Assembly: GCA_964649705.1 (NCBI GenBank)
Contig: CAZYRM010000110.1
Coordinates: forward strand, 1 to 21,703
Direction: 5' to 3'
Source of the DNA: an uncultured Planctomycetia bacterium
Lineage (GTDB): Bacteria; Planctomycetota; MHYJ01; WSZJ01; CAZYRM01
Length of the DNA: 21,703 nucleotides
The notes below the pieces were generated by a model, which was not told where the DNA came from, ran no database searches, and saw nothing but the letters and a program-made list of their open reading frames with translations. Shown here one piece after another: positions 1-15,703 of this stretch. Numbering within the stretch: position 1 is the stretch's first letter; each line of letters starts with the position of its first letter. Made by a program: the position numbers and the translations under genes.

Positions 1-1583
1 AGACCGGCAGCATCCAGCCGCGCGAGCAGCTCATCCTCAAGAACGAGGTCGAGGGACAGACCACGCTCCTCTACCTCATCCCCGAGGGGACCGCCGTCAA
101 GGCGGGGGACCTCCTCGCGCAGCTCGACGGGAGCAAGCTCACGGACCAGCGGCTGGAGCAGCAGATCACCGTCCAGAACGCCGAGGCCGGCTTCGTGCGC
201 GCACGCGAGACGCTCGAGGTGGAGAAGAGCGTCGCCGAGAGCAACGTCTCCAAGGAGGCCCTCGCCCTCAAGTTCGCCGGCGACGACCTGAAGAAGTACC
301 TCGAGGGCGACTACCCGAACCAGGTCAAGGAGGCGGAGGCGAGGATCACGCTGGCCGAGGGGGAGCTGAAGCGGGCCACGGAGAAGCTGGAGTGGTCGCG
401 GGTCCTGAGCAAGGAGAAGTACGTCTCCGGGACGGAGCTGGAGGGGGACGAGCTGGCCGAGCGCAAGGCGCGGCTCGACGTGGAGCTCGCGAAGAGCGCG
501 CTCGATCTGCTGCGCGGCTTCACGTACGAGCGGACGAAGACGAAGCTCGAGAGCGACCTGGAGCAGGCGAAGCTCTCGCTGGAGCGGACGAAGCGAAAGT
601 CCAACGCCGACCTGATCCAGGCCGAGGCGGACCTCAAGGCGAAGGAGAGCGAGCACCAGCGGCAGCAGGCGAAGCTCAAGAAGATGGAGGAGCAGCTCGG
701 CAAGACGAAGATCGTCGCGCCGCGCGACGGCCTCGTCGTCTACGCCACGTCGACGCAGGGGGGAGGGGGGCGCGGCGGGGGCTCCGAGCCGCTGGCGGAG
801 GGGCAGGCGATCCGCGAGCGCCAGGAGCTGATCAAGCTGCCGACCGCCGAGGACATGATGGCGGTGGTGAAGGTCCACGAGTCGCGCCTGGACAAGGTCC
901 GCCCCGGGCTGACCGTGCGGCTGACGATCGACGCGCTGCCGGGGAGGCAGTTCACGGGAAAGGTCGTCCGCATCGCGCCGCTCCCCGACGCGACGAACAT
1001 GTGGATGAACCCCGACCTGAAGGTCTACACGACGGAGATCTACATCGACCGGAACTCGGAGGGCCTCCGCACGGGGATGTCGTGCCAGGCCCAGGTCCTG
1101 GTGGCGGAGTACGACGACGCGGTCTCGGTGCCGATCCAGGCCGTGGTGAGGCAGGGCGCCCGCGCGCTGGTGTGGGTCGTGCGCGGAGGGCGCACGGAGG
1201 AGCGGGCCGTCGAGGTGGGCCTCGACAACAACAGGATGATCCACGTCGTCTCGGGGCTGGCGGAGGGGGAGGAGGTCCTCCTTGCGCCGCCGCTCGACGC
1301 GGGGGACCGCACGCCGGCGACTCCTGCGGGCGGCGCCGCGTTGTCGCCCTCCAGCCAGAAGATCGGGACGGGGGGCGCGGCAACGGAGGCGCCCGCACCC
1401 GCGGCGGAGCCGGCCGCCGAGAAGCCGCCCGAGGGCCGGGGCGGGCGGGGGGGCAGGACGCCCGAGGAGCGCGAGGCCTGGAAGAAGAAGATGGAGTCGA
1501 TGACGCCGGAGGAGCAGGAGAAGATGCGCGAGCAGATGCGGAACCGGAAGCCGCCCGAGGAAGGGGAGGGCGGACCGAAGTGA
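1..1583 (+). CDS. HlyD/MacA-family periplasmic adaptor (membrane fusion protein) of a tripartite efflux pump; 5' end lies outside the window
   Basis: The frame is open from position 3 with no stop until TGA at 1581-1583. The translation has long coiled-coil segments (…LEQQITVQNAEAGF…ELKRATEKLEWS…LESDLEQAKLSLERTK…) followed by a beta-barrel/MP domain (KIVAPRDGLVVYA, VRIAPLPDATN, SVPIQAVV), typical of HlyD/MacA adaptors. It has an internal GGGGRGGGS insert and an RGG/EK-rich C-terminal tail. Its stop overlaps the next gene's GTG start (GTGA). Confidence 0.85.
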   Translation, partial: TGSIQPREQLILKNEVEGQTTLLYLIPEGTAVKAGDLLAQLDGSKLTDQRLEQQITVQNAEAGFVRARETLEVEKSVAESNVSKEALALKFAGDDLKKYLEGDYPNQVKEAEARITLAEGELKRATEKLEWSRVLSKEKYVSGTELEGDELAERKARLDVELAKSALDLLRGFTYERTKTKLESDLEQAKLSLERTKRKSNADLIQAEADLKAKESEHQRQQAKLKKMEEQLGKTKIVAPRDGLVVYATSTQGGGGRGGGSEPLAEGQAIRERQELIKLPTAEDMMAVVKVHESRLDKVRPGLTVRLTIDALPGRQFTGKVVRIAPLPDATNMWMNPDLKVYTTEIYIDRNSEGLRTGMSCQAQVLVAEYDDAVSVPIQAVVRQGARALVWVVRGGRTEERAVEVGLDNNRMIHVVSGLAEGEEVLLAPPLDAGDRTPATPAGGAALSPSSQKIGTGGAATEAPAPAAEPAAEKPPEGRGGRGGRTPEEREAWKKKMESMTPEEQEKMREQMRNRKPPEEGEGGPK

Positions 1584-2314
1584 CCTCGGCGCCTGCGACC
1601 GTCGCCGACGGGGGGGCCGCGGCGACGCCTCCCGTCGTCGAGCTCCTCGACGTCCGGAAGACCTACCGCATGGGGGCCTCGGAGGTCCACGCGCTCGCGG
1701 GCGTCAGCGCCCGCTTCGAGCAGGGGAGCTACTGGGCGATCATGGGGCCCAGCGGGTCGGGCAAGAGCAGCATGCTGAACCTGCTCGGGTGCCTCGACCG
1801 CCCGACGAGCGGGACCTACCTGCTGCGGGGCCAGGACGTCAGCCGCCTGCCCGACAACGAGCTCAGCGAGCTGCGCCTCAGGCACCTGGGGTTCATCTTC
1901 CAGAGCTTCCACCTCATCCAGCAGCTCACGGTGAGGGAGAACATCGAGCTGCCGCTCTACTACCTGGGCTGGGAGCCTCACGTCGCGGCGGAGCGCGCCA
2001 CGCGGCTGGCGGAGCAGGTGGGGCTGGGGGACAGGCTGGAGCACCGCCCGAACGAGCTGTCGGGCGGGCAGCAGCAGCGCGTCGCGATCGCGAGGGCGCT
2101 GGCGAACGACCCGCCGATCCTGATGGCGGACGAGCCGACGGGGAACCTCGACTCCGCGACCGGCGAGCAGATCATGGCGCTGATCGCCCGCCTGAATAAT
2201 GAGGGGAAGACGGTCATCATGGTGACGCACGAGCCGGACATCGCGGCGCACGCCTCGTACCGGATGCACATGCGGGACGGCCGCGTGGAGAGCATCGAGG
2301 AGGGGAGGCGATGA
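1580..2314 (+). CDS. ABC transporter ATP-binding subunit, MacB/LolD-like (ATPase only, about 244 aa)
   Basis: GTG start at 1580 overlaps the upstream stop (GTGA), with a GGAGGGGAGG-like Shine-Dalgarno (SD) sequence upstream. Walker A GPSGSGKSS, Q-loop, ABC signature LSGGQQQRVAIARAL, Walker B ILMADEPTGNLD and H-loop VTHEP are all present. The N-terminal LLDVRKTYRMG is typical of the MacB/LolD family. The track's long 392..2314 ORF is only an N-terminal extension in another gene's space. Confidence 0.9.
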   Translation: MTSAPATVADGGAAATPPVVELLDVRKTYRMGASEVHALAGVSARFEQGSYWAIMGPSGSGKSSMLNLLGCLDRPTSGTYLLRGQDVSRLPDNELSELRLRHLGFIFQSFHLIQQLTVRENIELPLYYLGWEPHVAAERATRLAEQVGLGDRLEHRPNELSGGQQQRVAIARALANDPPILMADEPTGNLDSATGEQIMALIARLNNEGKTVIMVTHEPDIAAHASYRMHMRDGRVESIEEGRR

Positions 2315-2315
2315 C
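2280..2315 (+). repeat. 36-bp direct repeat, copy A (gccgcgtggagagcAtcgaggaggggaggcgatgac) covering the last 11 codons of the ATPase and its ATGA stop
   Basis: It is identical at 35 of 36 positions to 9558..9593, which sits immediately at the start of the FtsX permease gene. Both copies contain a GGAGGGGAGG SD sequence and ATGA. Confidence 0.85.
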
Positions 2316-2458
2316 CGCCTGCCGGGGAGTCTGCCACACGATTGAGGTCCGGAGGTTGCGCGACAGCCTGGAGTCTGGGACAATTCGCATCCGATTCTGG
2401 GTCCGAGGCGGTCGAGAGGCCGCCGGCCCTCGCCCGGTCGGATATCGCGGACTCCGCC

Positions 2459-4780
2459 ATGGTTCGAGTCGTCGTTGCCGGGCTGCCCGACATCGCGGTG
2501 TGGCTTGCCCGCCGCTTTCCCGGCGCGACGATGCTCGCTACGTCGACGGTCGAGGAGACACGCTCCGCACTCGCTGAGGGCGAGTGGACGGCGCTCCTCA
2601 TCGACGACCGTCTCGACGGCCAGCCGGGCAAGAGCCTGGTCGAGCGACTTCGCGCGCACCCATGCTACGCCCGTCTCCCCATCCTCTACTGTCTCGCCCA
2701 GCGGCCAGCGGGGGAGCAGGCGAAGCGGCTGGTCGCGGACCTGGGCGTCCACCGGCTCCTCGTTCAGCCCGTGGACCGGGAGGACATCGCGCGCCACATC
2801 GCCTCCCTCGCCAGGGTCCCCCTTCCCCCCACTCTCGAAGCGAGCGAGGTGGACCCGGAAGAGCGCGCCGAGTTGATCGAGATTTGGGAGAAGTACCGCG
2901 ACCAGCGCAGGGAGCGTATCGCGACGCTGGAGCTGGCGACCCTGGCGATCCGCTCGCGCACGCTCGACGCGTCGCTCGCCATGCGTGCGGAGGCCGCAGC
3001 GCACTGGCTCGCGGGCTCGGTCGGCACGTTCGGATATCTGGACGGCACACGCATCGCGCGTTCCCTCGAGCGCGTTTTCAAGGTGCTCGCCCCTTCGGGG
3101 TCGGCCGACGCGGAGCAGGTGGCCGAGCTCCTGGGGGCCCTGCAGGCGGAGCTTTCCCGTCCGCCGCTCGCCGCCACCCCGTCCGCGGCTCCCGCCGGAT
3201 CGATGACGGAGGGGGAGGATGCGCCGTACCTGCTGATCGCCGACGACGACCCGGCCGTGGGAGAGGCGCTGGCGAGGGAGGCGGGTGGGCGGGGCATGCG
3301 AACGACCGTGGCGACCGACATCGCCTCCGCGCGCGAGGCGGCGCGACGGGAACGGCCCTCGGCTGTCGTGCTCGACCTCGCCTTCCCGGGAAACACCGAG
3401 GGCGGCCTGGCCCTTCTGGCGGAGATGGGGTCGATTCAGCCGCCCATCCCGGTCCTGATCCACACTTCGTCGGACGAATTCTCGCACCGGGTCGAGACGG
3501 CGAGGCTCGGCGCGGGAGGGTTCCTGCACAAGCCGCTCTCCCCCGCGGCGGTCCTGACCGAGGTCCAGGGCCTGCTCCAGCGCGTGCGCTCGGCGCAACC
3601 GCACGTCCTCGCCGTGGACGACGACAGCGGCCTGCTGGCCGCCCTTCGCGCCCGCATCCAGGCGCAAGGCGTCCGCGTGACCACGCTCGACGACCCGCTC
3701 CGGTTCTGGGACGTGCTGGAACACGCCTCCCCCGACCTCCTCGTGCTGGACGTGGAGATGCCGCACGTCGGGGGCATCGAGCTCTGCCGCGTCGTGCGGA
3801 ACGACGCCCGATGGTCGAGGCTGCCGGTCCTTTTCCTGACGACCCACGTCGAGCCCGACGTCGTCGAGCGGCTCTTCGCCGCGGGCGCGGACGACTACGT
3901 GACGAAGCCGATCATTGGAGCGGAGCTGATCACGCGGATTCGCAACCGCCTCGACCGCGTCCGCCTGCACCGACGGCTCGCCGAGACCGACTTCCTCACC
4001 GGCGTCTCGAACCGCCAGCGCTCGGGCGAGACCCTCGAGAAGCTCCTGCGACTCGCCGAGCGGCAACGGGCGCCGTTGAGCGTGGGCCTCCTCGACCTGG
4101 ACCGCTTCAAGGACGTGAACGACACGCACGGCCACGCGGCGGGGGACGCCGTCCTCGCCCGTCTCGGGAGGCTGCTGCTGCGCACCTTCCGCGGAGAGGA
4201 CGTCGTCGCGCGGTGGGGCGGGGAGGAGTTCGTCGTCGGCATGTACGGGATGACGAGGAACGACGGCGTGGAGCGGCTCGCGCAGGCGCTCGAGGCCTGG
4301 CGCACGGAGGAATTCGCGGGGAAGGAAGATGCGAAGTTCCACTGCAGTTTCAGCGCGGGGATCTCCCAGTACCCGTGCGACGGGGGGAGCCTTGATGCGC
4401 TGTACCGGGTCGCGGACGAGGCGCTCTACCGGGCGAAGCACGAGGGACGCGACCGGATCGTACCGGCCGGACCAGGAACGGAAGCGGCGGGCGACGACGG
4501 GGCCATCGCCGTCGCCGTCGCGGACGATGCGACGGCCGCGATGGTCCGGCGTGCGCTCGTCACGCGGGGGTACCGCGTGTGGGCCGCGCGCGACCAGGAG
4601 GCGATGCCCCGCGGGAACGGAGCGCGCGTCGCCGTGATCGGCGGCGAGGGGCCGCCCGACGGGCTCGATGCGGCCGCGATCCTGCGGATCGAGAGTCCCG
4701 TGCTCCTGGCCGATGTCGTCAGGCGCGTGAGATTCGCCATGGAGGGGGACCTCCGCCGCGCGATGGCGGAGGCCCCGTAG
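2459..4780 (+). CDS. Multi-receiver response regulator with GGDEF diguanylate cyclase domain (PleD-like; REC-like, REC, REC, GGDEF, then a degenerate REC-like C-terminus)
   Basis: Receiver signatures include LLIADDDPAV…VVLDLAFPG…FLHKPL and HVLAVDDDSG…LLVLDVEMPHVGG…DYVTKPI. The GGDEF domain has the active-site motif RWGGEEFVV plus DLDRFKDVNDTHGH and YRAKHEGRDRIV. Start is placed at ATG 2459 (MVRVVVAGL). An in-frame TTG at 2342 is an alternative. No clear SD sequence is visible. Confidence 0.8.
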   Translation: MVRVVVAGLPDIAVWLARRFPGATMLATSTVEETRSALAEGEWTALLIDDRLDGQPGKSLVERLRAHPCYARLPILYCLAQRPAGEQAKRLVADLGVHRLLVQPVDREDIARHIASLARVPLPPTLEASEVDPEERAELIEIWEKYRDQRRERIATLELATLAIRSRTLDASLAMRAEAAAHWLAGSVGTFGYLDGTRIARSLERVFKVLAPSGSADAEQVAELLGALQAELSRPPLAATPSAAPAGSMTEGEDAPYLLIADDDPAVGEALAREAGGRGMRTTVATDIASAREAARRERPSAVVLDLAFPGNTEGGLALLAEMGSIQPPIPVLIHTSSDEFSHRVETARLGAGGFLHKPLSPAAVLTEVQGLLQRVRSAQPHVLAVDDDSGLLAALRARIQAQGVRVTTLDDPLRFWDVLEHASPDLLVLDVEMPHVGGIELCRVVRNDARWSRLPVLFLTTHVEPDVVERLFAAGADDYVTKPIIGAELITRIRNRLDRVRLHRRLAETDFLTGVSNRQRSGETLEKLLRLAERQRAPLSVGLLDLDRFKDVNDTHGHAAGDAVLARLGRLLLRTFRGEDVVARWGGEEFVVGMYGMTRNDGVERLAQALEAWRTEEFAGKEDAKFHCSFSAGISQYPCDGGSLDALYRVADEALYRAKHEGRDRIVPAGPGTEAAGDDGAIAVAVADDATAAMVRRALVTRGYRVWAARDQEAMPRGNGARVAVIGGEGPPDGLDAAAILRIESPVLLADVVRRVRFAMEGDLRRAMAEAP

Positions 4781-4855
4781 TCGCGCTCTCGAGGCGCACA
4801 CGTCGGCCGCCCCGCGGAAGGGCGGGGGGCCGCACACCGTGGAGGGATGGCCGAG

Positions 4856-5236
4856 ATGCCGAAGATCCTGCTTGTCGAAGACAACGAAATGAACCGCGAC
4901 ATGCTGTCGCGCCGACTCGAACGGCGCGGCTTCCAGGTCTCGATCGCCGTCGACGGCAAGGCGGCCCTCGATCTCGTCCGGACCGAGCTTCCCGACCTGG
5001 TCCTCATGGACATGAACCTCCCCGAGATCGACGGCTGGGAGGCCACCCGACGGCTCAAGGCGGACGAGGCCACGCGCCCGATCCCCGTTCTCGCGCTCAC
5101 CGCGCACGCCATGGCGGGCGACCGGGACAAGGCGCTCGCGGCGGGGGCCGACGACTACGACATCAAGCCGGTCGAGTTCGCGCGCCTCGTGGGGAAGATC
5201 GAGGCTCTCCTGAAGAGGACGCCGCCGAAGGCGTGA
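4856..5236 (+). CDS. Single-domain CheY-like response regulator receiver
   Basis: The translation reads MPKILLVEDNEMNRDML…DLVLMDMNLPEIDGWE…DYDIKPV. GGAGGG at 4841-4846 sits 9-10 nt upstream of ATG 4856. An in-frame ATG at 4847 is too close to the SD sequence to be the start. Stop is TGA at 5234-5236. Confidence 0.88.
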   Translation: MPKILLVEDNEMNRDMLSRRLERRGFQVSIAVDGKAALDLVRTELPDLVLMDMNLPEIDGWEATRRLKADEATRPIPVLALTAHAMAGDRDKALAAGADDYDIKPVEFARLVGKIEALLKRTPPKA

Positions 5237-5273
5237 TGCGCGCCGCCCCATTCGAATCCGCAGAGAGACCCGC

Positions 5274-7705
5274 ATGTTGAACGCCCTTCGCCGCGCCCTG
5301 GTCCGCCGACCGATCGTCGCCATCAGCGCGCTCGTCCTCATCGCCGGCGTCGCCATCGTCTTCCTCATGAACCGCCTGGCGACCAACCTCCTGGAGTTCA
5401 AGGCCGCCCGCGACGCGTCCCTCTACTCGACGGCGCTCGCCGAGTTCCGCACGCTCTACACGTCCGAGGTCGTCGCCACCGCCACGGCGAACGGGATCGA
5501 GGTCACCCACGACTACAAGAAGAAGAAGGGGGCCATCCCGCTGCCGGCGACGCTCAGCATGCTGCTGGGCGAAAGGATCGGGGTGCACGAGTCGGGGGCC
5601 GAGAGCCATCTCTATTCCCCGTATCCCTTCCCGTGGCGCGCCGCGGAGGGGGGCTTCGCGACGGGTTCCGCAAGGCGGCCTGGGACCATCTCAACGCGGA
5701 GCCCGAGGGCGCCTACTACCGGTTCGAGACGGTCGGCGGCAGCCCCGTGCTCCGGTACGCCACGGCTGACCGCATGCGGCAGGCGTGCGTGAACTGCCAC
5801 AACTCGCACCCCGACAGCCCGAAGACCGACTGGAAGGAGGGAGACGTCCGCGGCATCCTGGAGGTCGACCTCCCCATGGTGGCGGCGCAGACGGAGACGC
5901 GGAGGGAACTGCTCGGGACGACGGCCCTCCTGGCCGGGATGGCCGCGGTCGGGCTCGGCCTGCTCGCGCTCCTCATCGGCGGGCTGCGGAGGACGTCGAG
6001 CGACCTGGAGACGAACGTTCAGAAGCTCCGCGAAGCGCACGAGCAGCTCAGGGTCAGCTACAACACCGTCGAGGAAACGGTGCGGACGCGGACTTCCGAG
6101 CTTCAGACGAGCATGAACGACCTCGCGCGCGCGAACCAGGCGCTGGACGAGGCGCGGGAGCTTGCCGAGCAGGCGAACCGCACGAAGAGCGCCTTCCTCG
6201 CGAACATGAGCCACGAGCTGCGTACGCCCCTCAACGCGATCATCGGGTACAGCGAGATGCTTCAGGAGGAGATGTCGGGGGAGGGGCGCGACGCGCACGT
6301 CGCCGATGCGGAGAAGATCCGCGCCGCGGGACTCCACCTGCTGCGCCTGATCAACGAGGTGCTCGATCTGTCGAAGATCGAGGCGGGGAAGATGGTGCTC
6401 GCGCCGGAGACGTTTGACGTGGCGCGACTCGTCGATGACGTCGTCAGCACGGTCCGCCCCCTCGCGGAGCAGAACTCGAACCGTCTGATGGTCGAGGTCG
6501 CCCCCGACGCTGGCGACCTCTACGCAGATTTGACGCGGGTACGCCAGACGCTGTTCAACCTCCTCAGCAACGCGTGCAAGTTCACGCGGAACGGCGTGGT
6601 GACGGTGAAGGTCCGCCGGGAGAGCGCCGCGGATGGCGGCTGGATTTCGATGGCGGTCACGGACACCGGCATCGGGATGAGCCCGGAACAGGTCTCGAAG
6701 CTCTTCCAGGAGTTCCAGCAGGCGTCCTCCTCCACCGCGCGCGAATACGGCGGCACGGGATTGGGGCTCGCGATCACGCGCAGGCTCTGCACCCTGATGG
6801 GCGGGGAGGTGACCGTGACGAGCGAGCCGGGGAAGGGCTCCACGTTCACGGTGCGGCTCCCCGTCGCGCGGGAGGCCTCGCCTGCGCGAGAGGAGCCGAT
6901 CGTCGGCGCCTCACCCGCCCTTCGGCACGAAGCCGCTTCCGGACGCAACCTCGTCCTCTCGATCGACGACGAGCCATCGACCCTCGAGCTGCTCTCCCGC
7001 TTCCTGGGCAAGGAGGGCTTCACGATCGTCACGACGACCAGCGGGGTCGAGGGGGTGAACCTCGCACGGAAGCTGTCGCCGATCGCCATCACGCTCGATG
7101 TGATGATGCCCGGGACCGACGGCTGGGAGGTGCTGACGATGCTCAAGAGCGACCCGGCCACCAGGGACATCCCCGTCCTCGTGTTGAGCATTCTCGATCA
7201 GCAGCAGACGGGCTTCGCGCTCGGGGCGTCGCACTACCTCATGAAGCCGATCGACCGCGACGCGCTCGTAGGAGTGCTCGCCCCCTACCGCCGCGTCGAC
7301 GGCGCCGCAAAGGTCCTGGTCGTCGAGGACGACCCCGACAGCCGCGACCTCGCCCGGAGGATCGCGGAGCGGCAAGGCTGGAGCGTCACGGAAGCCGTGA
7401 ACGGGCGCGAGGGACTGGAGCGCATGGTCGAGGTGTCCCCCGACGTCGTCATCCTTGACCTCATGATGCCCGAGCTGGACGGGTTTGAGTTCCTGAAGGA
7501 GATGAGGCGCGAACCGAAGTGGCGCACCGTGCCGGTGATCGTCGTCACCTCGAAGGACCTGACGACGGAGGACCACATGCGCCTGAACAACGGCGTGCTG
7601 AAGATCCTCCAGAAGAGCAAGATCACGAAGGACGACCTGCTGAGCGAGATCCGCGACGCGCTGCATGGACGGATCGCGACCTCCATCCGCCCGCAGGTCT
7701 CGTGA
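5274..7705 (+). CDS. Hybrid sensor histidine kinase: N-terminal TM, periplasmic DUF3365/Tll0287-like heme-c sensor (CxxCH), TM, HisKA, HATPase_c, two REC. It is interrupted by a single-base frameshift in a G6 run (5648-5653), so it is a possible pseudogene or sequencing error
   Basis: Frame 0 (5274..) gives an N-terminal TM helix and the first half of the sensor (…[15 protein letters not shown]). Frame 2 (from 5633) continues seamlessly with [13 protein letters not shown]…YYRFE…[41 protein letters not shown]. That is followed by a TM helix, the H-box [23 protein letters not shown], a HATPase (GGTGLGLAI) and two receiver domains (ITLDVMMPG…YLMKP and [12 protein letters not shown]…). Inserting one G restores a continuous ORF. 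Confidence 0.8.
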
Positions 7706-9372
7706 CGACCGTCGGTCCCGGGCCTCGCCGCCCCGCGCCCAGCGCGACGTGGATCGCCCTGGTCGCTGCGGCCTACGTTGTCACCGGCCGGCTAGGGATC
7801 GCGGCAGCGCTCCAGCAGGTCACTTCTGTCTGGCCCCCGTCGGGTCTTGCCCTCGCCGCGGTCCTCCTCCTCGGTCCGCGCGCGGCGGCCGGGGTGGCCC
7901 TCGGCTCCTTCCTCCTCAATTTCGGCCTCACCTTCGACCGCGCCCGCCCGGTCGCGTCGGTCGCCGTCGTCGCGGCAATGGCGGTCGGGTCGACGATCGA
8001 GTGCCTGGTCGGGCGCGCGCTGCTCCTGCGCTTCGCCCGCGGCGCAGCCTGCCTCGACCGGGCCGCCGACGTCTTCCGCTTCGTGGCGCTGGCAGGGCTA
8101 CTCAGCCCGACGCTCGCAGCGACGATCGGCGCCGCTGCCCTGACCCTGGGAGGCCCGCCCTCGCACCGCGGATTTGGCCCCATCTGGTCCACCTGGTGGA
8201 TCGGGGACGCGGTCGGCGTCTTCGTCGTCGCGCCACTGCTGCTCGCCTGGGCGCGAGAGCCGCGCCTTGCGCGCGACCCCTGGCGCTGGGCGGAGGCCCT
8301 GCTCCTCGGCGGGGCGGTCCTCGCGGTCGCGCTGACTGCGTTCCGCGCCGGCTACCCCGTCGAAACGCTCGCGATCCCGTGTCTGGTCTGGGCCGCCTTC
8401 AGCTTCGGCGCTCGCGGCGCGACTCTGCTCACCGTCGTCCTCGCGGGGATCGCGGTCTGGGGAACCGTCCACGGGCACGGCACCTTCGCCCGGACGACGC
8501 TCGGCGAGTCGCTCGCCTTCCTCCAGACGTTTGTCGGCGTCGTCGCGGTCTCCTCCCTTGCCCTCTGCGCCGTGCTCGCCGAACGCGCGGCCCGGTCCGT
8601 CGACCTCCTCCGCGCCATGGAGGAGTCGACCGCCGCCCGCGTCGCGGCGGAATCGGCCAACCGCGCGAAGACCCTGTTCCTCGCCAATATGAGCCACGAG
8701 CTCCGCACGCCTCTCAACCACATCATCGGGTACGCCGAAATGCTCCAGGAGGACGCGGAGCGGGAAGGGCGCGCGGAGGCCGTGTCAGACCTGAAGAAGG
8801 TCGTCACGTCCGCGCGCTCGCTCCTGGGGGTCCTTCATTCGATCCTCGATGCCGCCCGGCTGGAGGCGGGCACGATCGACCTGACCATCGGCGAGTTCGA
8901 CCTCTCCTCGGTGGTCTACGAGGTGAGGGGCCTGACCCTCCCCCTGGCGGAGGCGAACGGCAACACGCTGGAGGTCCGGGTCGCCAACGGGATTGGCCCT
9001 GTTCGAGGTGACCGGGAGAAGGTGCGCCAGGCCCTCCTCCATGTCGTCGACAACGCGTGCAAATTCACCAGGAACGGCGCAATCTCCGTGGCGGCGTCGC
9101 GGGAGACCTGGGGAGGACGTCCCTGCCTTGCCATCGTCGTGTCGGACACGGGAATCGGGCTGGGTAAGGAGGAGATCGACGGGATCTTCCGTCCGTTCGT
9201 CCAGGTCGACGCCTCCCCCACGCGGCGCTACGGAGGCCTCGGTCTGGGCCTCTCGATCGCACGTCAGTTCCTTCAGATGCTCGACGGGGATCTATCGGTG
9301 ACAAGCGTGCCGGGCCAGGGATCGACGTTCACGCTGCGGCTGCCCGACGGCGTCCTGCCCAGCGGAACCTGA
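7702..9372 (+). CDS. MASE1-domain sensor histidine kinase (HisKA + HATPase_c)
   Basis: A GTG start at 7702 overlaps the upstream TGA (GTGA). The N-terminal polytopic membrane domain has the MASE1 signature (…[34 protein letters not shown]…). The H-box [23 protein letters not shown] is near-identical to that of the upstream kinase. The HATPase region carries DNACKFT…[12 protein letters not shown]…[11 protein letters not shown]. Stop is TGA at 9370-9372. Confidence 0.8.
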
Positions 9373-9557
9373 CGTCGTCGTGACCGCGCGAGCGGCTGCT
9401 TCGGACTCACCAGGATCCCCGCGCCCCGCGCGTCCGCTTCGGATGCGCTGCGGGGCGGGTGCGCGGATGCGGCGCTCGCAGCTTCGCGCTTGCCACGGCC
9501 GAGCGCCGCATGCTTCCATGTCGGACAGTCCGAGAGGGCGGGGACATGGCTCCTCGC

Positions 9558-9593
9558 GCCGCGTGGAGAGCGTCGAGGAGGGGAGGCGATGAC
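9558..9593 (+). repeat. 36-bp direct repeat, copy B (gccgcgtggagagcGtcgaggaggggaggcgatgac) at the start of the permease gene
   Basis: It differs from copy A by one mismatch. In one frame it encodes the orphan peptide …RVESVEEGRR*, and its ATGA supplies the ATG of the FtsX permease. Confidence 0.85.
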
Positions 9594-10857
9594 GTTGCGG
9601 AGGTGGCTCAGGGACGTCCGGCTCGGCGTGAAGACGCTGCTCCTGCACAAGCTGCGCTCCTTGCTGACGATGCTCGGCGTGGTGTTCGGCGTGGGGAGCG
9701 TGGTGGCGATGCTGGCGGTGGGGGAGGGGGCGAGCCGCGAGGCGCTGGAGCAGATCCGGAAGCTGGGGAGCCACAACGTCATCGTCACGGCAATGAAGCC
9801 GACCGAGGAGTCGACCTCGAGCACTCAGCGCATGCGGATGCTGATCTACGGGCTGACGTACGAGGACGAGGTGAGGGTCAGGGAGGGGTTCGCGTCGGCG
9901 ACGCGGGTCGTTCCGGCGAAGATCATCCGCAAGGAGGCGAGGCTCGGGGAGCGGACGCTGGAGCTCAGGGTGGTGGGGACGACGCCGGAGTGGTTCGAGC
10001 TGGTGCCTCGGCCGCTGCTGGCGGGGCGGATGCTCCTCGCGTCGGACCGCGAGCAGCGGACGAACGTGGCGGTGCTGACGGAGTACGGCGCGCGGAGGCT
10101 GCTGGCGGCCTCGAACACGCTGGGGCAGGTCCTCAGGGTGGGGACGCACGCCTTCGAGGTGGTGGGGATCGTGCGGAGCGAGGGGGGGCAGGGGAGCAGC
10201 GTGCAGACGCCGGACCAGGAGGTGGACGCCTACATCACGATCGACGTGGCGCGGGCGCGGTTCGGCGACGTGTTCACGAGGATGAGCTCGGGGTCGATGG
10301 AGCGGGAGCAGGTGGAGCTGCACCAGCTCATCGTGGAGGCGCGGTCGCTGGACGAGGTGGAGCCGATGGCCGCGGCGCTGCAGGCGATGTTCGACCGGTT
10401 CCACCCGAAGAAGGACGTGCGGATCAGCGTGCCTCTGGCGCTGCTGCGCCAGGCAGAGGCGACGAAGCGGACGTTCAACATCGTGCTGGGCTCCATCGCG
10501 GGGATCAGCCTGCTGGTGGGCGGGATCGGGATCATGAACATCATGCTGGCGAGCGTGACGGAGCGGACCAAGGAGATCGGGATCCGAAGGGCGATCGGGG
10601 CGAAGCGCAGGCAGATCGTGGGTCAGTTCCTGATCGAGACGGTGGTGCTCTCGTCGATCGGCGGTGTGATGGGGGTGGCGCTCGGGATGGCGATCCCGCG
10701 GGTGATCACATACGCGGCGGGGATGCCGACGGTGGTGACGCCGTGGAGCGTGGCGCTCGCGTTCGGCATCTCGGGGGCGGTGGGAGTCGTCTTCGGCCTG
10801 TACCCCGCGGTGCGCGCCGCGCGCCTGGACCCGATCGAGGCCCTGCGCCACGAGTAG
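9589..10857 (+). CDS. ABC transporter permease, FtsX/MacB family, with a large periplasmic domain
   Basis: ATG at 9589 is preceded by GGAGGGGAGG. The translation MTLRRWLRDVRLGVKTLLLHKLRSLLTMLGVVFGVGSVVAMLAVGEG shows the MacB N-terminal TM1. A periplasmic domain of about 200 aa follows, then three C-terminal TM helices with the FtsX motif (IMNIMLASVTERTKEIGIRRAIGAKRRQI…). The track start at 9490 is an upstream extension. Confidence 0.85.
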   Translation: MTLRRWLRDVRLGVKTLLLHKLRSLLTMLGVVFGVGSVVAMLAVGEGASREALEQIRKLGSHNVIVTAMKPTEESTSSTQRMRMLIYGLTYEDEVRVREGFASATRVVPAKIIRKEARLGERTLELRVVGTTPEWFELVPRPLLAGRMLLASDREQRTNVAVLTEYGARRLLAASNTLGQVLRVGTHAFEVVGIVRSEGGQGSSVQTPDQEVDAYITIDVARARFGDVFTRMSSGSMEREQVELHQLIVEARSLDEVEPMAAALQAMFDRFHPKKDVRISVPLALLRQAEATKRTFNIVLGSIAGISLLVGGIGIMNIMLASVTERTKEIGIRRAIGAKRRQIVGQFLIETVVLSSIGGVMGVALGMAIPRVITYAAGMPTVVTPWSVALAFGISGAVGVVFGLYPAVRAARLDPIEALRHE

Positions 10858-10865
10858 GGAGGCCT

Positions 10866-14306: not shown

Positions 14307-14504
14307 ATGAATCCCTGGATCATAGAAGAACGCCGCCTCCTGGTGTGTCCGCCCAGCCAGAGGATTACAGTACGGATCGCGCCTGCCACCCCGACGCCGG
14401 AGTCGCGCCATCCCCTTTGTGGCGCCTGGGCGGATGAGCGCCCCGTAGAGGAGATCATCGAGTCGCTCAGGTCGCTGCGACGCCGCCTCTCGGGAGCTCG
14501 GTGA
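14307..14504 (+). CDS. Putative type II antitoxin (VapB-like partner of the downstream PIN toxin), 65 aa
   Basis: AAGGAGGAG SD sequence lies 5 nt upstream of ATG 14307. It is a small protein (MNPWIIEERRLLV…CGAWADERPVEEIIESLRSLRRR). Its stop is 7 nt before the PIN gene start. The assignment rests mainly on position and size, so it is weakly supported. Confidence 0.5.
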   Translation: MNPWIIEERRLLVCPPSQRITVRIAPATPTPESRHPLCGAWADERPVEEIIESLRSLRRRLSGAR

Positions 14505-14510
14505 ACGCCC

Positions 14511-14921
14511 TTGAAGTACCTCTGGGACACGAACACCCTAATCTACTGGCTGAACGGCGACACCCGCGTCGAGGCCCTCCGCCTGCAACGTGGGTCCGAC
14601 AACATCGGCCTGTGCTGGCCGGTTGTCCTGGAATTGGTCCTGTGCACCAGCCAGTCCACGAACGTCGAGCGCAATATCCGGAACGCTGTGGAGGTCATCG
14701 CTGCGTTCCAGCCTATCCTCGAGTCTGACGGCGCCGTGATGGACCGTTTCTGCGCCTTGCGCGCTCAATTCAAGGCGAAGGCGACCCCGAAGCCCGAGAT
14801 GGACGTGCTAATCGCCGCCCACGCCCTCGTTCACGACCTGACGCTCGTCACCTCCAACGGCGCGGACTTCGAAGGCACCCCAGACCTCCGGATCGAGGAT
14901 TGGAGGTCTAGTTCCCGATGA
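14511..14921 (+). CDS. PIN-domain toxin (VapC-like ribonuclease)
   Basis: A TTG start at 14511 gives (M)KYLWDTNTLIYWL. Conserved acidic residues match a PIN domain (DTN…, VVLELV, LVTSNGADF). Its stop overlaps the ATG of the next gene (ATGA at 14918-14921). Local GC is visibly lower than the surrounding DNA. Confidence 0.75.
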   Translation: MKYLWDTNTLIYWLNGDTRVEALRLQRGSDNIGLCWPVVLELVLCTSQSTNVERNIRNAVEVIAAFQPILESDGAVMDRFCALRAQFKAKATPKPEMDVLIAAHALVHDLTLVTSNGADFEGTPDLRIEDWRSSSR

Positions 14922-15703
14922 CAACGACTTCGCGCGAATACGAGCTCTTCACGCAGATCGTCTACCAGGCGCTGGTGCGCGAGGTCCCCGACACCCGGGT
15001 GGAGCACGACGTCCAACTCTCCGATCCCTCCGGGGTCGAGCACCAGGTGGATGTCTATCTTGAGTTCAAGATCGCCGGACACGTCTACCGGACGATCATC
15101 GAATGCAAGCAGTGGACGCGCATGGTAGACGTGGGACCTGTCACCGACTTCTACGGCCTGATCCAGTCCCTGGGCGTCGAGAAGGGGATCATGGTCTCCA
15201 AGCTGGGCTTCAGCGATCCGGCGAGGGAATTCGCGCACGCCAGGGGGATCGACCTCGTCCAACTTCGGAAGCCTAGCGAGGAGGACTTGGAGAGACGCAT
15301 CAAGAGGATGGTCGTCCGTGTCAGCTTCTACATCCCCGAAATCGCCGACGTTGCCCTCGAACCGGCGACGGCTGCAGTGTCGTCTCGGGATCTAGCCGTG
15401 AACACGGGCGAGGCCAGGATTGTGGATGCGGGGTCGGGGCGGGAGGAGACCTTGCAGTCCGTCCTGCAACGAACCCTGCCCAAGGGTTGGCCAGAGGACT
15501 GGCAGACTGTGACGATTCCTCTCGGCGCTGGAACTGTTCTGGCGGTGGGTGGCGAGCGCATACCCGTCTCCGAGCTGCGGTTCCGTGCGAGGTTTCACCG
15601 GGCCGATGAACAGGTACTCCTCGACGGGGAGGCCATCGTCCGCGCGATCCTGCGCGATGTCTTTACCGGCGAGATCCGCACGGTGCGCCGCGTCGGCGCC
15701 TGA
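14918..15703 (+). CDS. Mrr-like restriction endonuclease-fold protein (PD-(D/E)xK nuclease; N-terminal Mrr_cat domain plus an uncharacterised C-terminal domain of about 120 aa)
   Basis: The translation reads YELFTQIVYQAL…HQVDVYLEF…YRTIIECKQWTRMVDVGPVTDFYGLIQSLGVEKGIMVSKLGFSDPAREFA, with a D…E-C-K catalytic triad arrangement. It is translationally coupled to the PIN gene. Stop is TGA at 15701-15703. Confidence 0.72.
   Translation: MTTTSREYELFTQIVYQALVREVPDTRVEHDVQLSDPSGVEHQVDVYLEFKIAGHVYRTIIECKQWTRMVDVGPVTDFYGLIQSLGVEKGIMVSKLGFSDPAREFAHARGIDLVQLRKPSEEDLERRIKRMVVRVSFYIPEIADVALEPATAAVSSRDLAVNTGEARIVDAGSGREETLQSVLQRTLPKGWPEDWQTVTIPLGAGTVLAVGGERIPVSELRFRARFHRADEQVLLDGEAIVRAILRDVFTGEIRTVRRVGA

Follow-up and report, generated by a model that had tools for sequence, protein, structure and literature searches.

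Four signalling genes between the ATPase and permease genes of a MacAB-type efflux operon are flanked by two copies of a 36-bp stop/start junction

How can a block of genes come to lie inside a compact operon while both of its new neighbours survive? The question is raised by a 21,703-nt stretch of DNA from an uncultured Planctomycetia bacterium (contig CAZYRM010000110.1; this whole stretch is referred to here as the window), in which the ATPase gene and the permease gene of a putative MacAB-type efflux operon lie on either side of a cassette of four signalling genes. An initial annotation, made from the sequence alone, had noted that the cassette is bracketed by a 36-bp direct repeat, and had proposed that the four genes were inserted at an ancestral ATPase-permease junction and that this junction was duplicated. 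Based on the observations reported here, we consider it likely that the locus arose by one insertion into the ancestral stop/start junction with duplication of 36 bp, an event that fits the class termed insertion with long target duplication.

The pump genes and the two copies of the repeat are arranged in the window as follows.

3..1583, plus strand: membrane fusion protein (MFP; the periplasmic adaptor), cut by the left end of the window; Pfam HlyD_D23/HlyD_3; full length of 583 aa in contig L090
1580..2314, plus strand: ATP-binding cassette (ABC) ATPase, nucleotide-binding half of a split MacB; Pfam ABC_tran 1.1e-33
2280..2315, plus strand: repeat copy A; last 11 codons and stop codon of the ATPase gene, then the first bases of the ancestral permease start (ATGAC)
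9558..9593, plus strand: repeat copy B; non-coding copy of the ATPase 3' end that gives the permease its Shine-Dalgarno (SD) sequence and ATG
9589..10857, plus strand: MacB-type permease, membrane half of a split MacB, 422 aa; Pfam MacB_PCD 1.2e-31 and FtsX 2.3e-23

Copy A (GCCGCGTGGAGAGCATCGAGGAGGGGAGGCGATGAC, 2280-2315) and copy B (GCCGCGTGGAGAGCGTCGAGGAGGGGAGGCGATGAC, 9558-9593) differ by a single A/G mismatch at 2294/9572 and are 35/36 identical (97%), in agreement with the position, length and single mismatch given by the initial annotation. With up to three mismatches allowed, the 36-mer matched the window twice, while there were no matches in 100 dinucleotide-preserving shuffles; moreover, it is the only near-perfect long repeat among the repeat families reported for the window. 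The bases flanking the 36-mer differ at once on both sides and, thus, the borders are sharp and the length is exactly 36 bp. That the 36-mer might be a general element of ribosome-binding sites (RBS), a possibility that the initial annotation had itself raised, is not borne out within the window, where only these two copies were found.

The two copies have different roles. The ATPase gene ends in frame in copy A with RDGRVESIEEGRR, followed by the stop codon at 2312-2314; by contrast, copy B contains the sequence GGAGG at 9577-9581, seven bases 5' of the permease ATG (9589-9591), with a TGA overlapping this ATG at 9590-9592. Both assignments had been made correctly in the initial annotation, which had also described a dead 70-codon open reading frame (ORF) in this region. 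This ORF (9380-9592, GTG start) does end with RRVESVEEGRR and a stop codon in copy B, but it is not a decayed ATPase gene, as only its last 11 codons are derived from the ATPase. We also considered the ORF as a real gene or as an ORF that couples translation to the permease, and rejected both, since its GC content at third codon positions (GC3) outside the repeat is 0.69, a non-coding value, it has no Pfam match, and an open frame of this kind has, by our own estimate, a chance of about one in four in DNA with 70% GC. Decayed ATPase homology, which had been suggested for 9373-9557, was not detected: this spacer to the right of the cassette had no homology to the ATPase gene, with 218 of 300 shuffles scoring as well or better. 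Similarly, neither the permease 5' end nor the right spacer showed homology to the spacer on the left of the cassette, with alignment scores inside the shuffle distributions. Because there is no homology beyond the 36 bp, the duplication comprises 36 bp, and there is no remnant of a longer one.

The initial annotation had predicted that related genomes would contain an empty site at which the ATPase stop codon overlaps the permease ATG. In a protein search, the closest permeases found were P0002, P0004 and P0003 with 87%, 78% and 75% amino acid identity, respectively; the window permease start aligns with the start of P0002. A scan of a genome collection gave no close relative (best match 64% identical), and the window's own permease sequence was not on record in a contig index. 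The loci of the three closest relatives, i.e. L081 (87%), L086 (78%) and L083 (75%), all read outer membrane efflux protein (OEP)-MFP-ATPase-permease. In L081, the ATPase TGA overlaps the permease ATG, the same 4-bp overlap is present in L083, and L086 is consistent with a GTGA overlap. The predicted empty site is, thus, present in L081 and L083, with L086 consistent, and the relatives have precisely the adjacent ATPase-permease pair whose absence would have spoken against the proposal.

Using blastn, window positions 3-2317 aligned with L081 2382-4735 at 77% identity and window positions 9568-10858 aligned with L081 4706-5998 at 79% identity. Accordingly, ~30 bp of L081 (4706-4735) were matched by both copies in the window, and window positions 2318-9567 had no match in L081. 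The mapping of both copies to one L081 junction, together with the arrangement in L081, L083 and L086, supports the proposal of an ancestral ATPase-permease operon with an ATGA-coupled junction. Compared to the L081 junction, copy A is identical at 27/36 positions and copy B at 26/36 (72-75%). As the copies agree at 97% with each other but at only 72-75% with the L081 junction, compared to 77-79% for the flanking genes, the duplication is a recent, derived one and much younger than the split from L081. Moreover, the empty site in relatives and the 97% identity of the copies support the proposal that four genes were inserted at the junction and that the junction was duplicated.

Among 80 more distant loci, the ATPase gene is located immediately upstream of the permease gene in 22, and immediately downstream in three, whereas in 49 it lies elsewhere or is missing. 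A lack of linkage between ATPase and permease genes is, thus, common in the family; nevertheless, the 22 loci together with the closest relatives indicate that the adjacent arrangement is widespread across phyla and ancestral for the clade. Signalling genes inside such an operon were not found in any of the relatives or distant homologues examined. Two loci deserve mention. In an Isosphaeraceae metagenome-assembled genome (MAG; L015, 9365-9995), a 630-nt non-coding gap separates the ATPase stop from the permease start of a homologous pump; we rejected this gap as a second insertion of the same type, as it has no junction repeat and no convincing ORF. In a Phycisphaerae MAG (L029, 8297-11302), a histidine kinase gene lies directly 5' of a 40%-identical permease gene with no ATPase or MFP gene within 10 kb on either side, i.e. 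orphan permeases beside signalling genes occur in the family.

In the mechanism that we propose, a 7,242-bp block (2316-9557) would have entered the OEP-MFP-ATPase-permease operon of an uncultured groundwater bacterium in one event, the target being the 4 bp over which the ATPase stop and the permease start overlap. Duplication of 36 bp of this target would have left copy A with the ATPase C terminus and stop codon and copy B with the permease RBS and start codon, such that both pump genes would survive while their translational coupling would be lost. The duplication could have come about by two single-strand breaks 36 bp apart followed by fill-in and capture of foreign DNA; alternatively, a single Campbell-type crossover of circular DNA carrying the 36-bp segment could have given the same structure. 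Selection may have acted as a filter through which only a junction-duplicating insertion was retained, because the genes overlap by ATGA and the permease RBS lies inside the upstream gene, so that only an insertion of this type preserves both genes. The permease would now be expressed by read-through from the operon or from the cassette.

For insertions of this kind, Furuta et al. (2010, Nucleic Acids Research; PMC2853133) required direct repeats >30 bp with a single-copy empty site on which they align, an insert that is <20 kb and the absence of other mobile elements. The repeats in the published cases often span a start or stop codon, and the target gene is left intact (PMC2853133). The target duplication described here exceeds 30 bp, and its two copies align on the single-copy empty site in L081, with the junction alignment extending to L083 and L086. 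Nobusato et al. (2000, Gene 259:99) are reportedly also named for insertion with long target duplication. The initial annotation had considered the arrangement not to have been described before; this holds for the cargo and the target, but the type of event is already in the literature (PMC2853133).

Searches for the hallmarks of other mobile elements were negative. No transposase, integrase or recombinase domains were found by Pfam in the insert or in the rest of the 21.7-kb window, no tRNA gene was found in the window, and no terminal inverted repeats were detected at the ends of the insert, with 185 of 300 shuffles scoring as well or better.

The insert (2316-9557; 7,242 bp) consists of the four signalling genes together with spacers of 143 nt and 185 nt; the intergenic gaps flanking the cassette are 144 nt on the ATPase side and 216 nt on the permease side.

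2316..2458, plus strand: left spacer, non-coding
2459..4780, plus strand: PleD-like Hpt-REC-REC-GGDEF diguanylate cyclase, 773 aa; Pfam Hpt, Response_reg (two stretches) and GGDEF
4856..5236, plus strand: CheY-like single-domain response regulator, 126 aa; Pfam Response_reg 2.8e-27; gene also called in contigs L082 and L090
5274..7705, plus strand: hybrid histidine kinase, frameshifted; transmembrane segment, Tll0287/heme-c Cache (CVNCH), transmembrane segment, HisKA, HATPase, REC, REC
7702..9372, plus strand: MASE1-HisKA-HATPase sensor kinase, 556 aa; Pfam MASE1 3.4e-38, HisKA and HATPase_c
9373..9557, plus strand: right spacer, non-coding, overlain by the chance 70-codon ORF (9380-9592); no Pfam match

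The gene layout bears out that all genes have the same orientation, and the Pfam domains agree with the gene content given in the initial annotation (PleD-like GGDEF protein, CheY, heme-DUF3365 hybrid kinase and MASE1 kinase); what had been missed is a frameshift in the heme kinase gene. The cyclase contains RGEDVVARWGGEEF, i.e. a GGEEF active site and an RxxD inhibitory site, both of which are intact, and its REC segments are located at residues 255-375 and 380-500. Because its score against the PleD equivalog is 205.6, and, therefore, below the cutoff of 474, we refer to this protein as PleD-like rather than as an equivalog. The MASE1 kinase gene overlaps the preceding kinase gene by GTGA at 7702-7705.

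The heme kinase gene has a -1 frameshift in a run of six Gs (5648-5653), such that it is read in frame 0 from the ATG at 5274 and then in frame 2, which carries the CVNCH motif. Adding one G yields an 810-aa kinase and extends the coverage of the Tll0287 profile from 76-144 to 34-144. The run of six Gs is the same in L082, L090 and L091, which are all three other assemblies that cover the site; for this reason, the frameshift is probably real, and the gene may be a pseudogene or a split gene. The CXXCH motif (CVNCH) is present, but the Cache-like domain is split by the frameshift, and an intact sCache_heme domain is, thus, not found. The frameshift speaks for selection having been relaxed, at least on this portion of the cassette.

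Neither spacer gave evidence of a regulatory element. A riboswitch or other RNA element, e.g. one responding to cyclic di-GMP (c-di-GMP), was considered and rejected, as there was no Rfam match at the gathering threshold over the window. In a permissive Rfam search, the right spacer had no match and the left spacer had one chance-level match (E=0.48) far under the gathering score; moreover, the folding z-scores are ordinary (-0.58 and -0.59 for the left and right spacer, respectively). No sigma-70-like promoter consensus or terminator consensus was found in either spacer, although the scan does not cover planctomycete promoters and is, therefore, weak evidence. Because the spacers contain no terminator-like or sigma-70-like site, read-through transcription of all genes is plausible.

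The origin of the cassette was approached by homology and composition. Apart from the window's own sequence, 5.8 billion protein clusters contained nothing closer to the GGDEF protein than a match with 52% identity, and the named matches near the top belong to Gemmatimonadota, Symbiobacteriia and similar groups; the contexts of GGDEF homologues that we inspected did not include other cassette genes but had, e.g., the arrangement REC-GGDEF-HEAT-glycosyltransferase. Full-length relatives of the MASE1 kinase in JGI metagenomes are ~34% identical, and the metagenome scan with this kinase gave no locus with co-located cassette genes. Finally, a plasmid collection gave domain-level matches only and no related element. 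The cassette as a unit was, thus, not seen elsewhere in the searches made. The initial annotation had suggested a comparison of GC content and codon usage between insert and flanks, and the outcome was divided: GC3 is 0.971-0.974 in the pump genes and lower, at 0.878-0.952, in the cassette genes, but the overall GC content is flat at ~0.70 along the window and the cassette values lie within the spread of the other window genes (0.80-0.95). We therefore rejected composition as proof of foreign origin and regard it as suggestive only. Based on the GC3 contrast and the lack of close relatives of the cassette, we conclude that the history of the cassette differs from that of the pump genes, its source being either a foreign donor of similar GC content or another site in the same genome.

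The structure was also examined in other assemblies. L082 (ENA, 'Hain_H51_02um_R1') spans both copies and the whole cassette with 99.73% identity, L090 (replicate R2) matches the window at 100% identity along 10,586 nt and spans both junctions, and the left junction is covered with 100% identity by L091 and L092, two Logan contigs that stem from different sequencing runs. The window and L082 are identical except for one base from 1196 to 10586, while in the segment that follows (window 10587-10858 and beyond; L082 9392-9949) there are 25 differences between 10587 and 10848, of which 23 are synonymous, and the sequences are unrelated 3' of the permease stop. L090 ends exactly at 10586. Between the window and L082, the permease 3' ends share 90.8% identity, and both lie at the same distance from the outgroups. 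The break near 10587 indicates either that two co-existing haplotypes have a recombination breakpoint inside the permease gene or that the assembly path switched from one strain to another; the finding of a cassette between two junction copies is untouched by it, as L082 covers the entire structure.

How do other explanations of the repeat compare with a single insertion? One could suspect that the repeat reflects faulty assembly, chance similarity or a generic RBS motif, as these contigs were assembled from metagenomes at low coverage (5-8, as given in the contig names). However, L082 and L090 span both junctions and L091 and L092 the left one, i.e. the same structure is present in other assemblies and it is, therefore, not an assembly artefact; moreover, the shuffles gave no match and the window contains only two copies. 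Altogether, we regard explanations of this type as negligible. It is also very improbable that the cassette is ancestral and was lost in the relatives by recombination between the 36-bp repeats. Loss of the DNA between two direct repeats would restore one perfect junction of the kind present in L081 and L083, but copy B is ATPase coding sequence in a non-coding context and must derive from a junction that was already adjacent, the adjacent arrangement is present across several phyla, divergence between the lineages amounts to 21-23% although the copies agree at 97%, and no relative has any cassette gene with more than 52% identity. More difficult to separate from a single insertion, although improbable, is a two-step history in which slippage generated a 36-bp tandem duplication of the junction that uncoupled the genes, and DNA later landed between the copies. 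The end product would be the same, a tandem copy would be a neutral landing site, and the alignments fit both histories; this scenario, however, involves two independent events, the second of which would have to occur at one exact phosphodiester bond, and the tandem intermediate was found in no relative examined. The repeats could, finally, be attL and attR of an element that carried a replacement 3' end and was placed by a tyrosine or serine recombinase with the integrase having been lost or acting in trans. A length of 36 bp is within the range of att cores, integration at 3' ends with restoration of the gene is typical of such elements (established knowledge; discussed in PMC2853133), and the borders are sharp without inverted repeats. 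We nevertheless consider this possibility unlikely, as neither the insert nor the rest of the window encodes an integrase or excisionase domain, there is no tRNA gene, four signalling genes and two short spacers fill the insert and leave no room for a decayed recombinase gene, and the searches of plasmids and of metagenome and genome loci gave no related element.

Several points weigh against the single insertion that we favour. The composition leaves a foreign origin unproven, and the cassette may have moved within the genome. The cargo consists of a GGDEF protein, a CheY-like protein and two kinases with no restriction-modification genes, the presence of which is a criterion of the published screen rather than of the mechanism. 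There is no demonstrated mechanism for insertions with long target duplication, and the class is descriptive. Integrase genes and extra copies of the 36-mer were assessed within the 21.7-kb window only. Finally, the nearest relative with an empty site is only ~78% identical in DNA and intermediate states are unsampled. A separate question is whether the cassette, whatever its route of entry, has become functionally integrated as a relay that responds to nitric oxide (NO) or redox and membrane signals, is co-transcribed with the pump, and controls the pump or the dosage of the permease via c-di-GMP. The shared orientation, the lack of a terminator-like site in the spacers, the intact active and inhibitory sites of the GGDEF protein, and an arrangement that is fixed in all assemblies seen are in its favour. 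Yet, the frameshift in one of the two sensor kinase genes is common to all assemblies that cover this gene, no relative or distant homologue examined has signalling genes inside such an operon, and in a full-text literature search for MacAB together with diguanylate cyclase neither term was in the title or abstract among the matches listed. Moreover, ATPase and permease genes are often unlinked (49/80 loci in the category 'other'), and, thus, their separation need not be regulatory. Functional integration is, in our opinion, doubtful.

On paper, the cassette would be a self-contained phosphorelay in which the hybrid kinase and the MASE1 kinase signal to the Hpt and REC domains of the cyclase and to the CheY-like protein, and from there to the GGDEF domain and c-di-GMP. 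For heme-c Cache sensors of the Tll0287/DUF3365 type that are fused to signalling modules, a role in NO sensing was recently proposed (PMC12889525). However, because the heme kinase gene is frameshifted, the case for c-di-GMP signalling coupled to the pump is weakened, and no functional link of the cassette to the pump was found. The cassette is most likely a passenger rather than a dedicated regulator of the pump. For the pump itself, the ATPase gene is unchanged and the permease gene is intact and has its own SD sequence and ATG; the termination-reinitiation coupling that the 4-bp overlaps suggest for the relatives is gone in the window.

The assignment of the operon to a pump type is based on the following observations. 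The MFP frame is open from base 3 with a GC3 of 0.97, and the full-length MFP in L090 scores 151.7 bits against NCBIfam RND_mfp (cutoff 94.9). The best NCBIfam match of the ATPase is to positions 3-221 of the 648 positions of the MacB profile, and the permease matches positions 262-648 of the same profile; from these complementary matches, we conclude that the two proteins represent a split MacB. ATPase-permease fusions are absent, with two separate genes in the window as well as in every relative, and the MacB equivalog cutoff of 966 bits was not reached. In L090, which reaches 716 nt further upstream than the window, a gene for a TolC-like OEP lies 5' of the MFP gene with a 4-bp overlap; the TolC-like match on this fragment is weak (33.3 bits, under the NCBIfam cutoff of 225.15). 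PF02321 OEP was found in L081, L083 and, weakly, in L086. A MacB ATPase, an MFP and an outer-membrane factor are, thus, encoded in one operon, as expected for a pump of the MacAB-TolC type, and we suggest that the operon encodes a putative MacAB-TolC-type tripartite ABC efflux pump.

The MFP and ATPase genes overlap by GTGA at 1580-1583. Together with the OEP/MFP junction (L090 548-551), the remaining junctions of the pump operon are all 4-bp GTGA/ATGA overlaps, and only the ATPase/permease junction is broken. The region 3' of the permease gene contains a DUF6288-PDZ gene on the minus strand in the window and a DUF5674 gene in L082. The first gene after the permease stop also differs for each relative (glyoxalase in L081, VWA in L083, AhpC/TSA in L086 and DUF5674 in L082) and the 3' boundary of the pump operon is, thus, a variable region. 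Further downstream in the window, a low-GC islet (14400-15700; 0.62-0.64 vs ~0.70) contains two genes with a 4-nt overlap, one for a PIN-domain protein (14511-14921) and one for an Mrr_cat restriction-endonuclease-like protein (14918-15703), which are possibly an acquired toxin or defence pair.

The locus provides a natural example, with empty sites, of genes entering a translationally coupled operon while sparing both neighbours, which is possible because the overlapping stop/start region was duplicated. It also extends a poorly understood class of insertions by a case that lacks restriction-modification genes and comes from an uncultured lineage, and gives a defined locus for asking whether a pump operon and a c-di-GMP relay became co-regulated. 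If the cassette were active, the pump operon would come with a c-di-GMP phosphorelay of its own that receives NO/redox input through heme-Cache and a further input through MASE1, synthesis of the permease would depend on transcription through the relay genes, and pump assembly would be linked to second-messenger signalling. Separately, a case free of restriction-modification genes would make long target duplication a general host process rather than the result of restriction-modification activity. We consider these wider implications rather doubtful.

Compared to known systems, the locus most closely resembles insertions with long target duplication, with which it shares repeats >30 bp, an empty site, an insert <20 kb, the lack of a transposase or integrase, and repeats that span the stop and start codons. 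By contrast, the published cargo is mostly restriction-modification genes and the hosts are mostly naturally competent Proteobacteria, whereas here the cargo is a two-component/c-di-GMP module, the target is an overlapping junction inside an operon and the host is uncultured and probably a planctomycete. As in the target-site duplications of transposons, a direct duplication of the target flanks the insert; however, these duplications are typically <10 bp compared to 36 bp here, and there are no terminal inverted repeats and no transposase. The longest transposon target duplication cited is 19-26 bp (IS1630; PMC2853133). Direct repeats of tens of bp and a restored 3' end of the target gene are shared with attL and attR of integrative genomic islands, from which the locus differs in having no integrase, no tRNA target and no space for mobility genes. 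The pump resembles MacAB-TolC (E. coli MacB, type VII ABC) and split relatives such as cyanobacterial DevBCA in its OEP, MFP, MacB-type ATPase and MacB_PCD and FtsX-containing permease, but differs from E. coli MacB in that the ATPase and permease are separate polypeptides, the genes for which are 7.3 kb apart and separated by unrelated genes. In the cassette, the cyclase has the REC-REC-GGDEF architecture with the GGEEF and RxxD sites of PleD-type diguanylate cyclases and, in contrast to these, an additional N-terminal Hpt domain; similarly, the hybrid kinase resembles Tll0287/sCache_heme sensor kinases (PMC12889525) in the CXXCH heme-c Cache domain fused to a kinase core but is frameshifted inside the sensor domain. 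In total, we conclude that the locus is not a new kind of molecular system but belongs to a known descriptive class, of which the cargo and the target are new.

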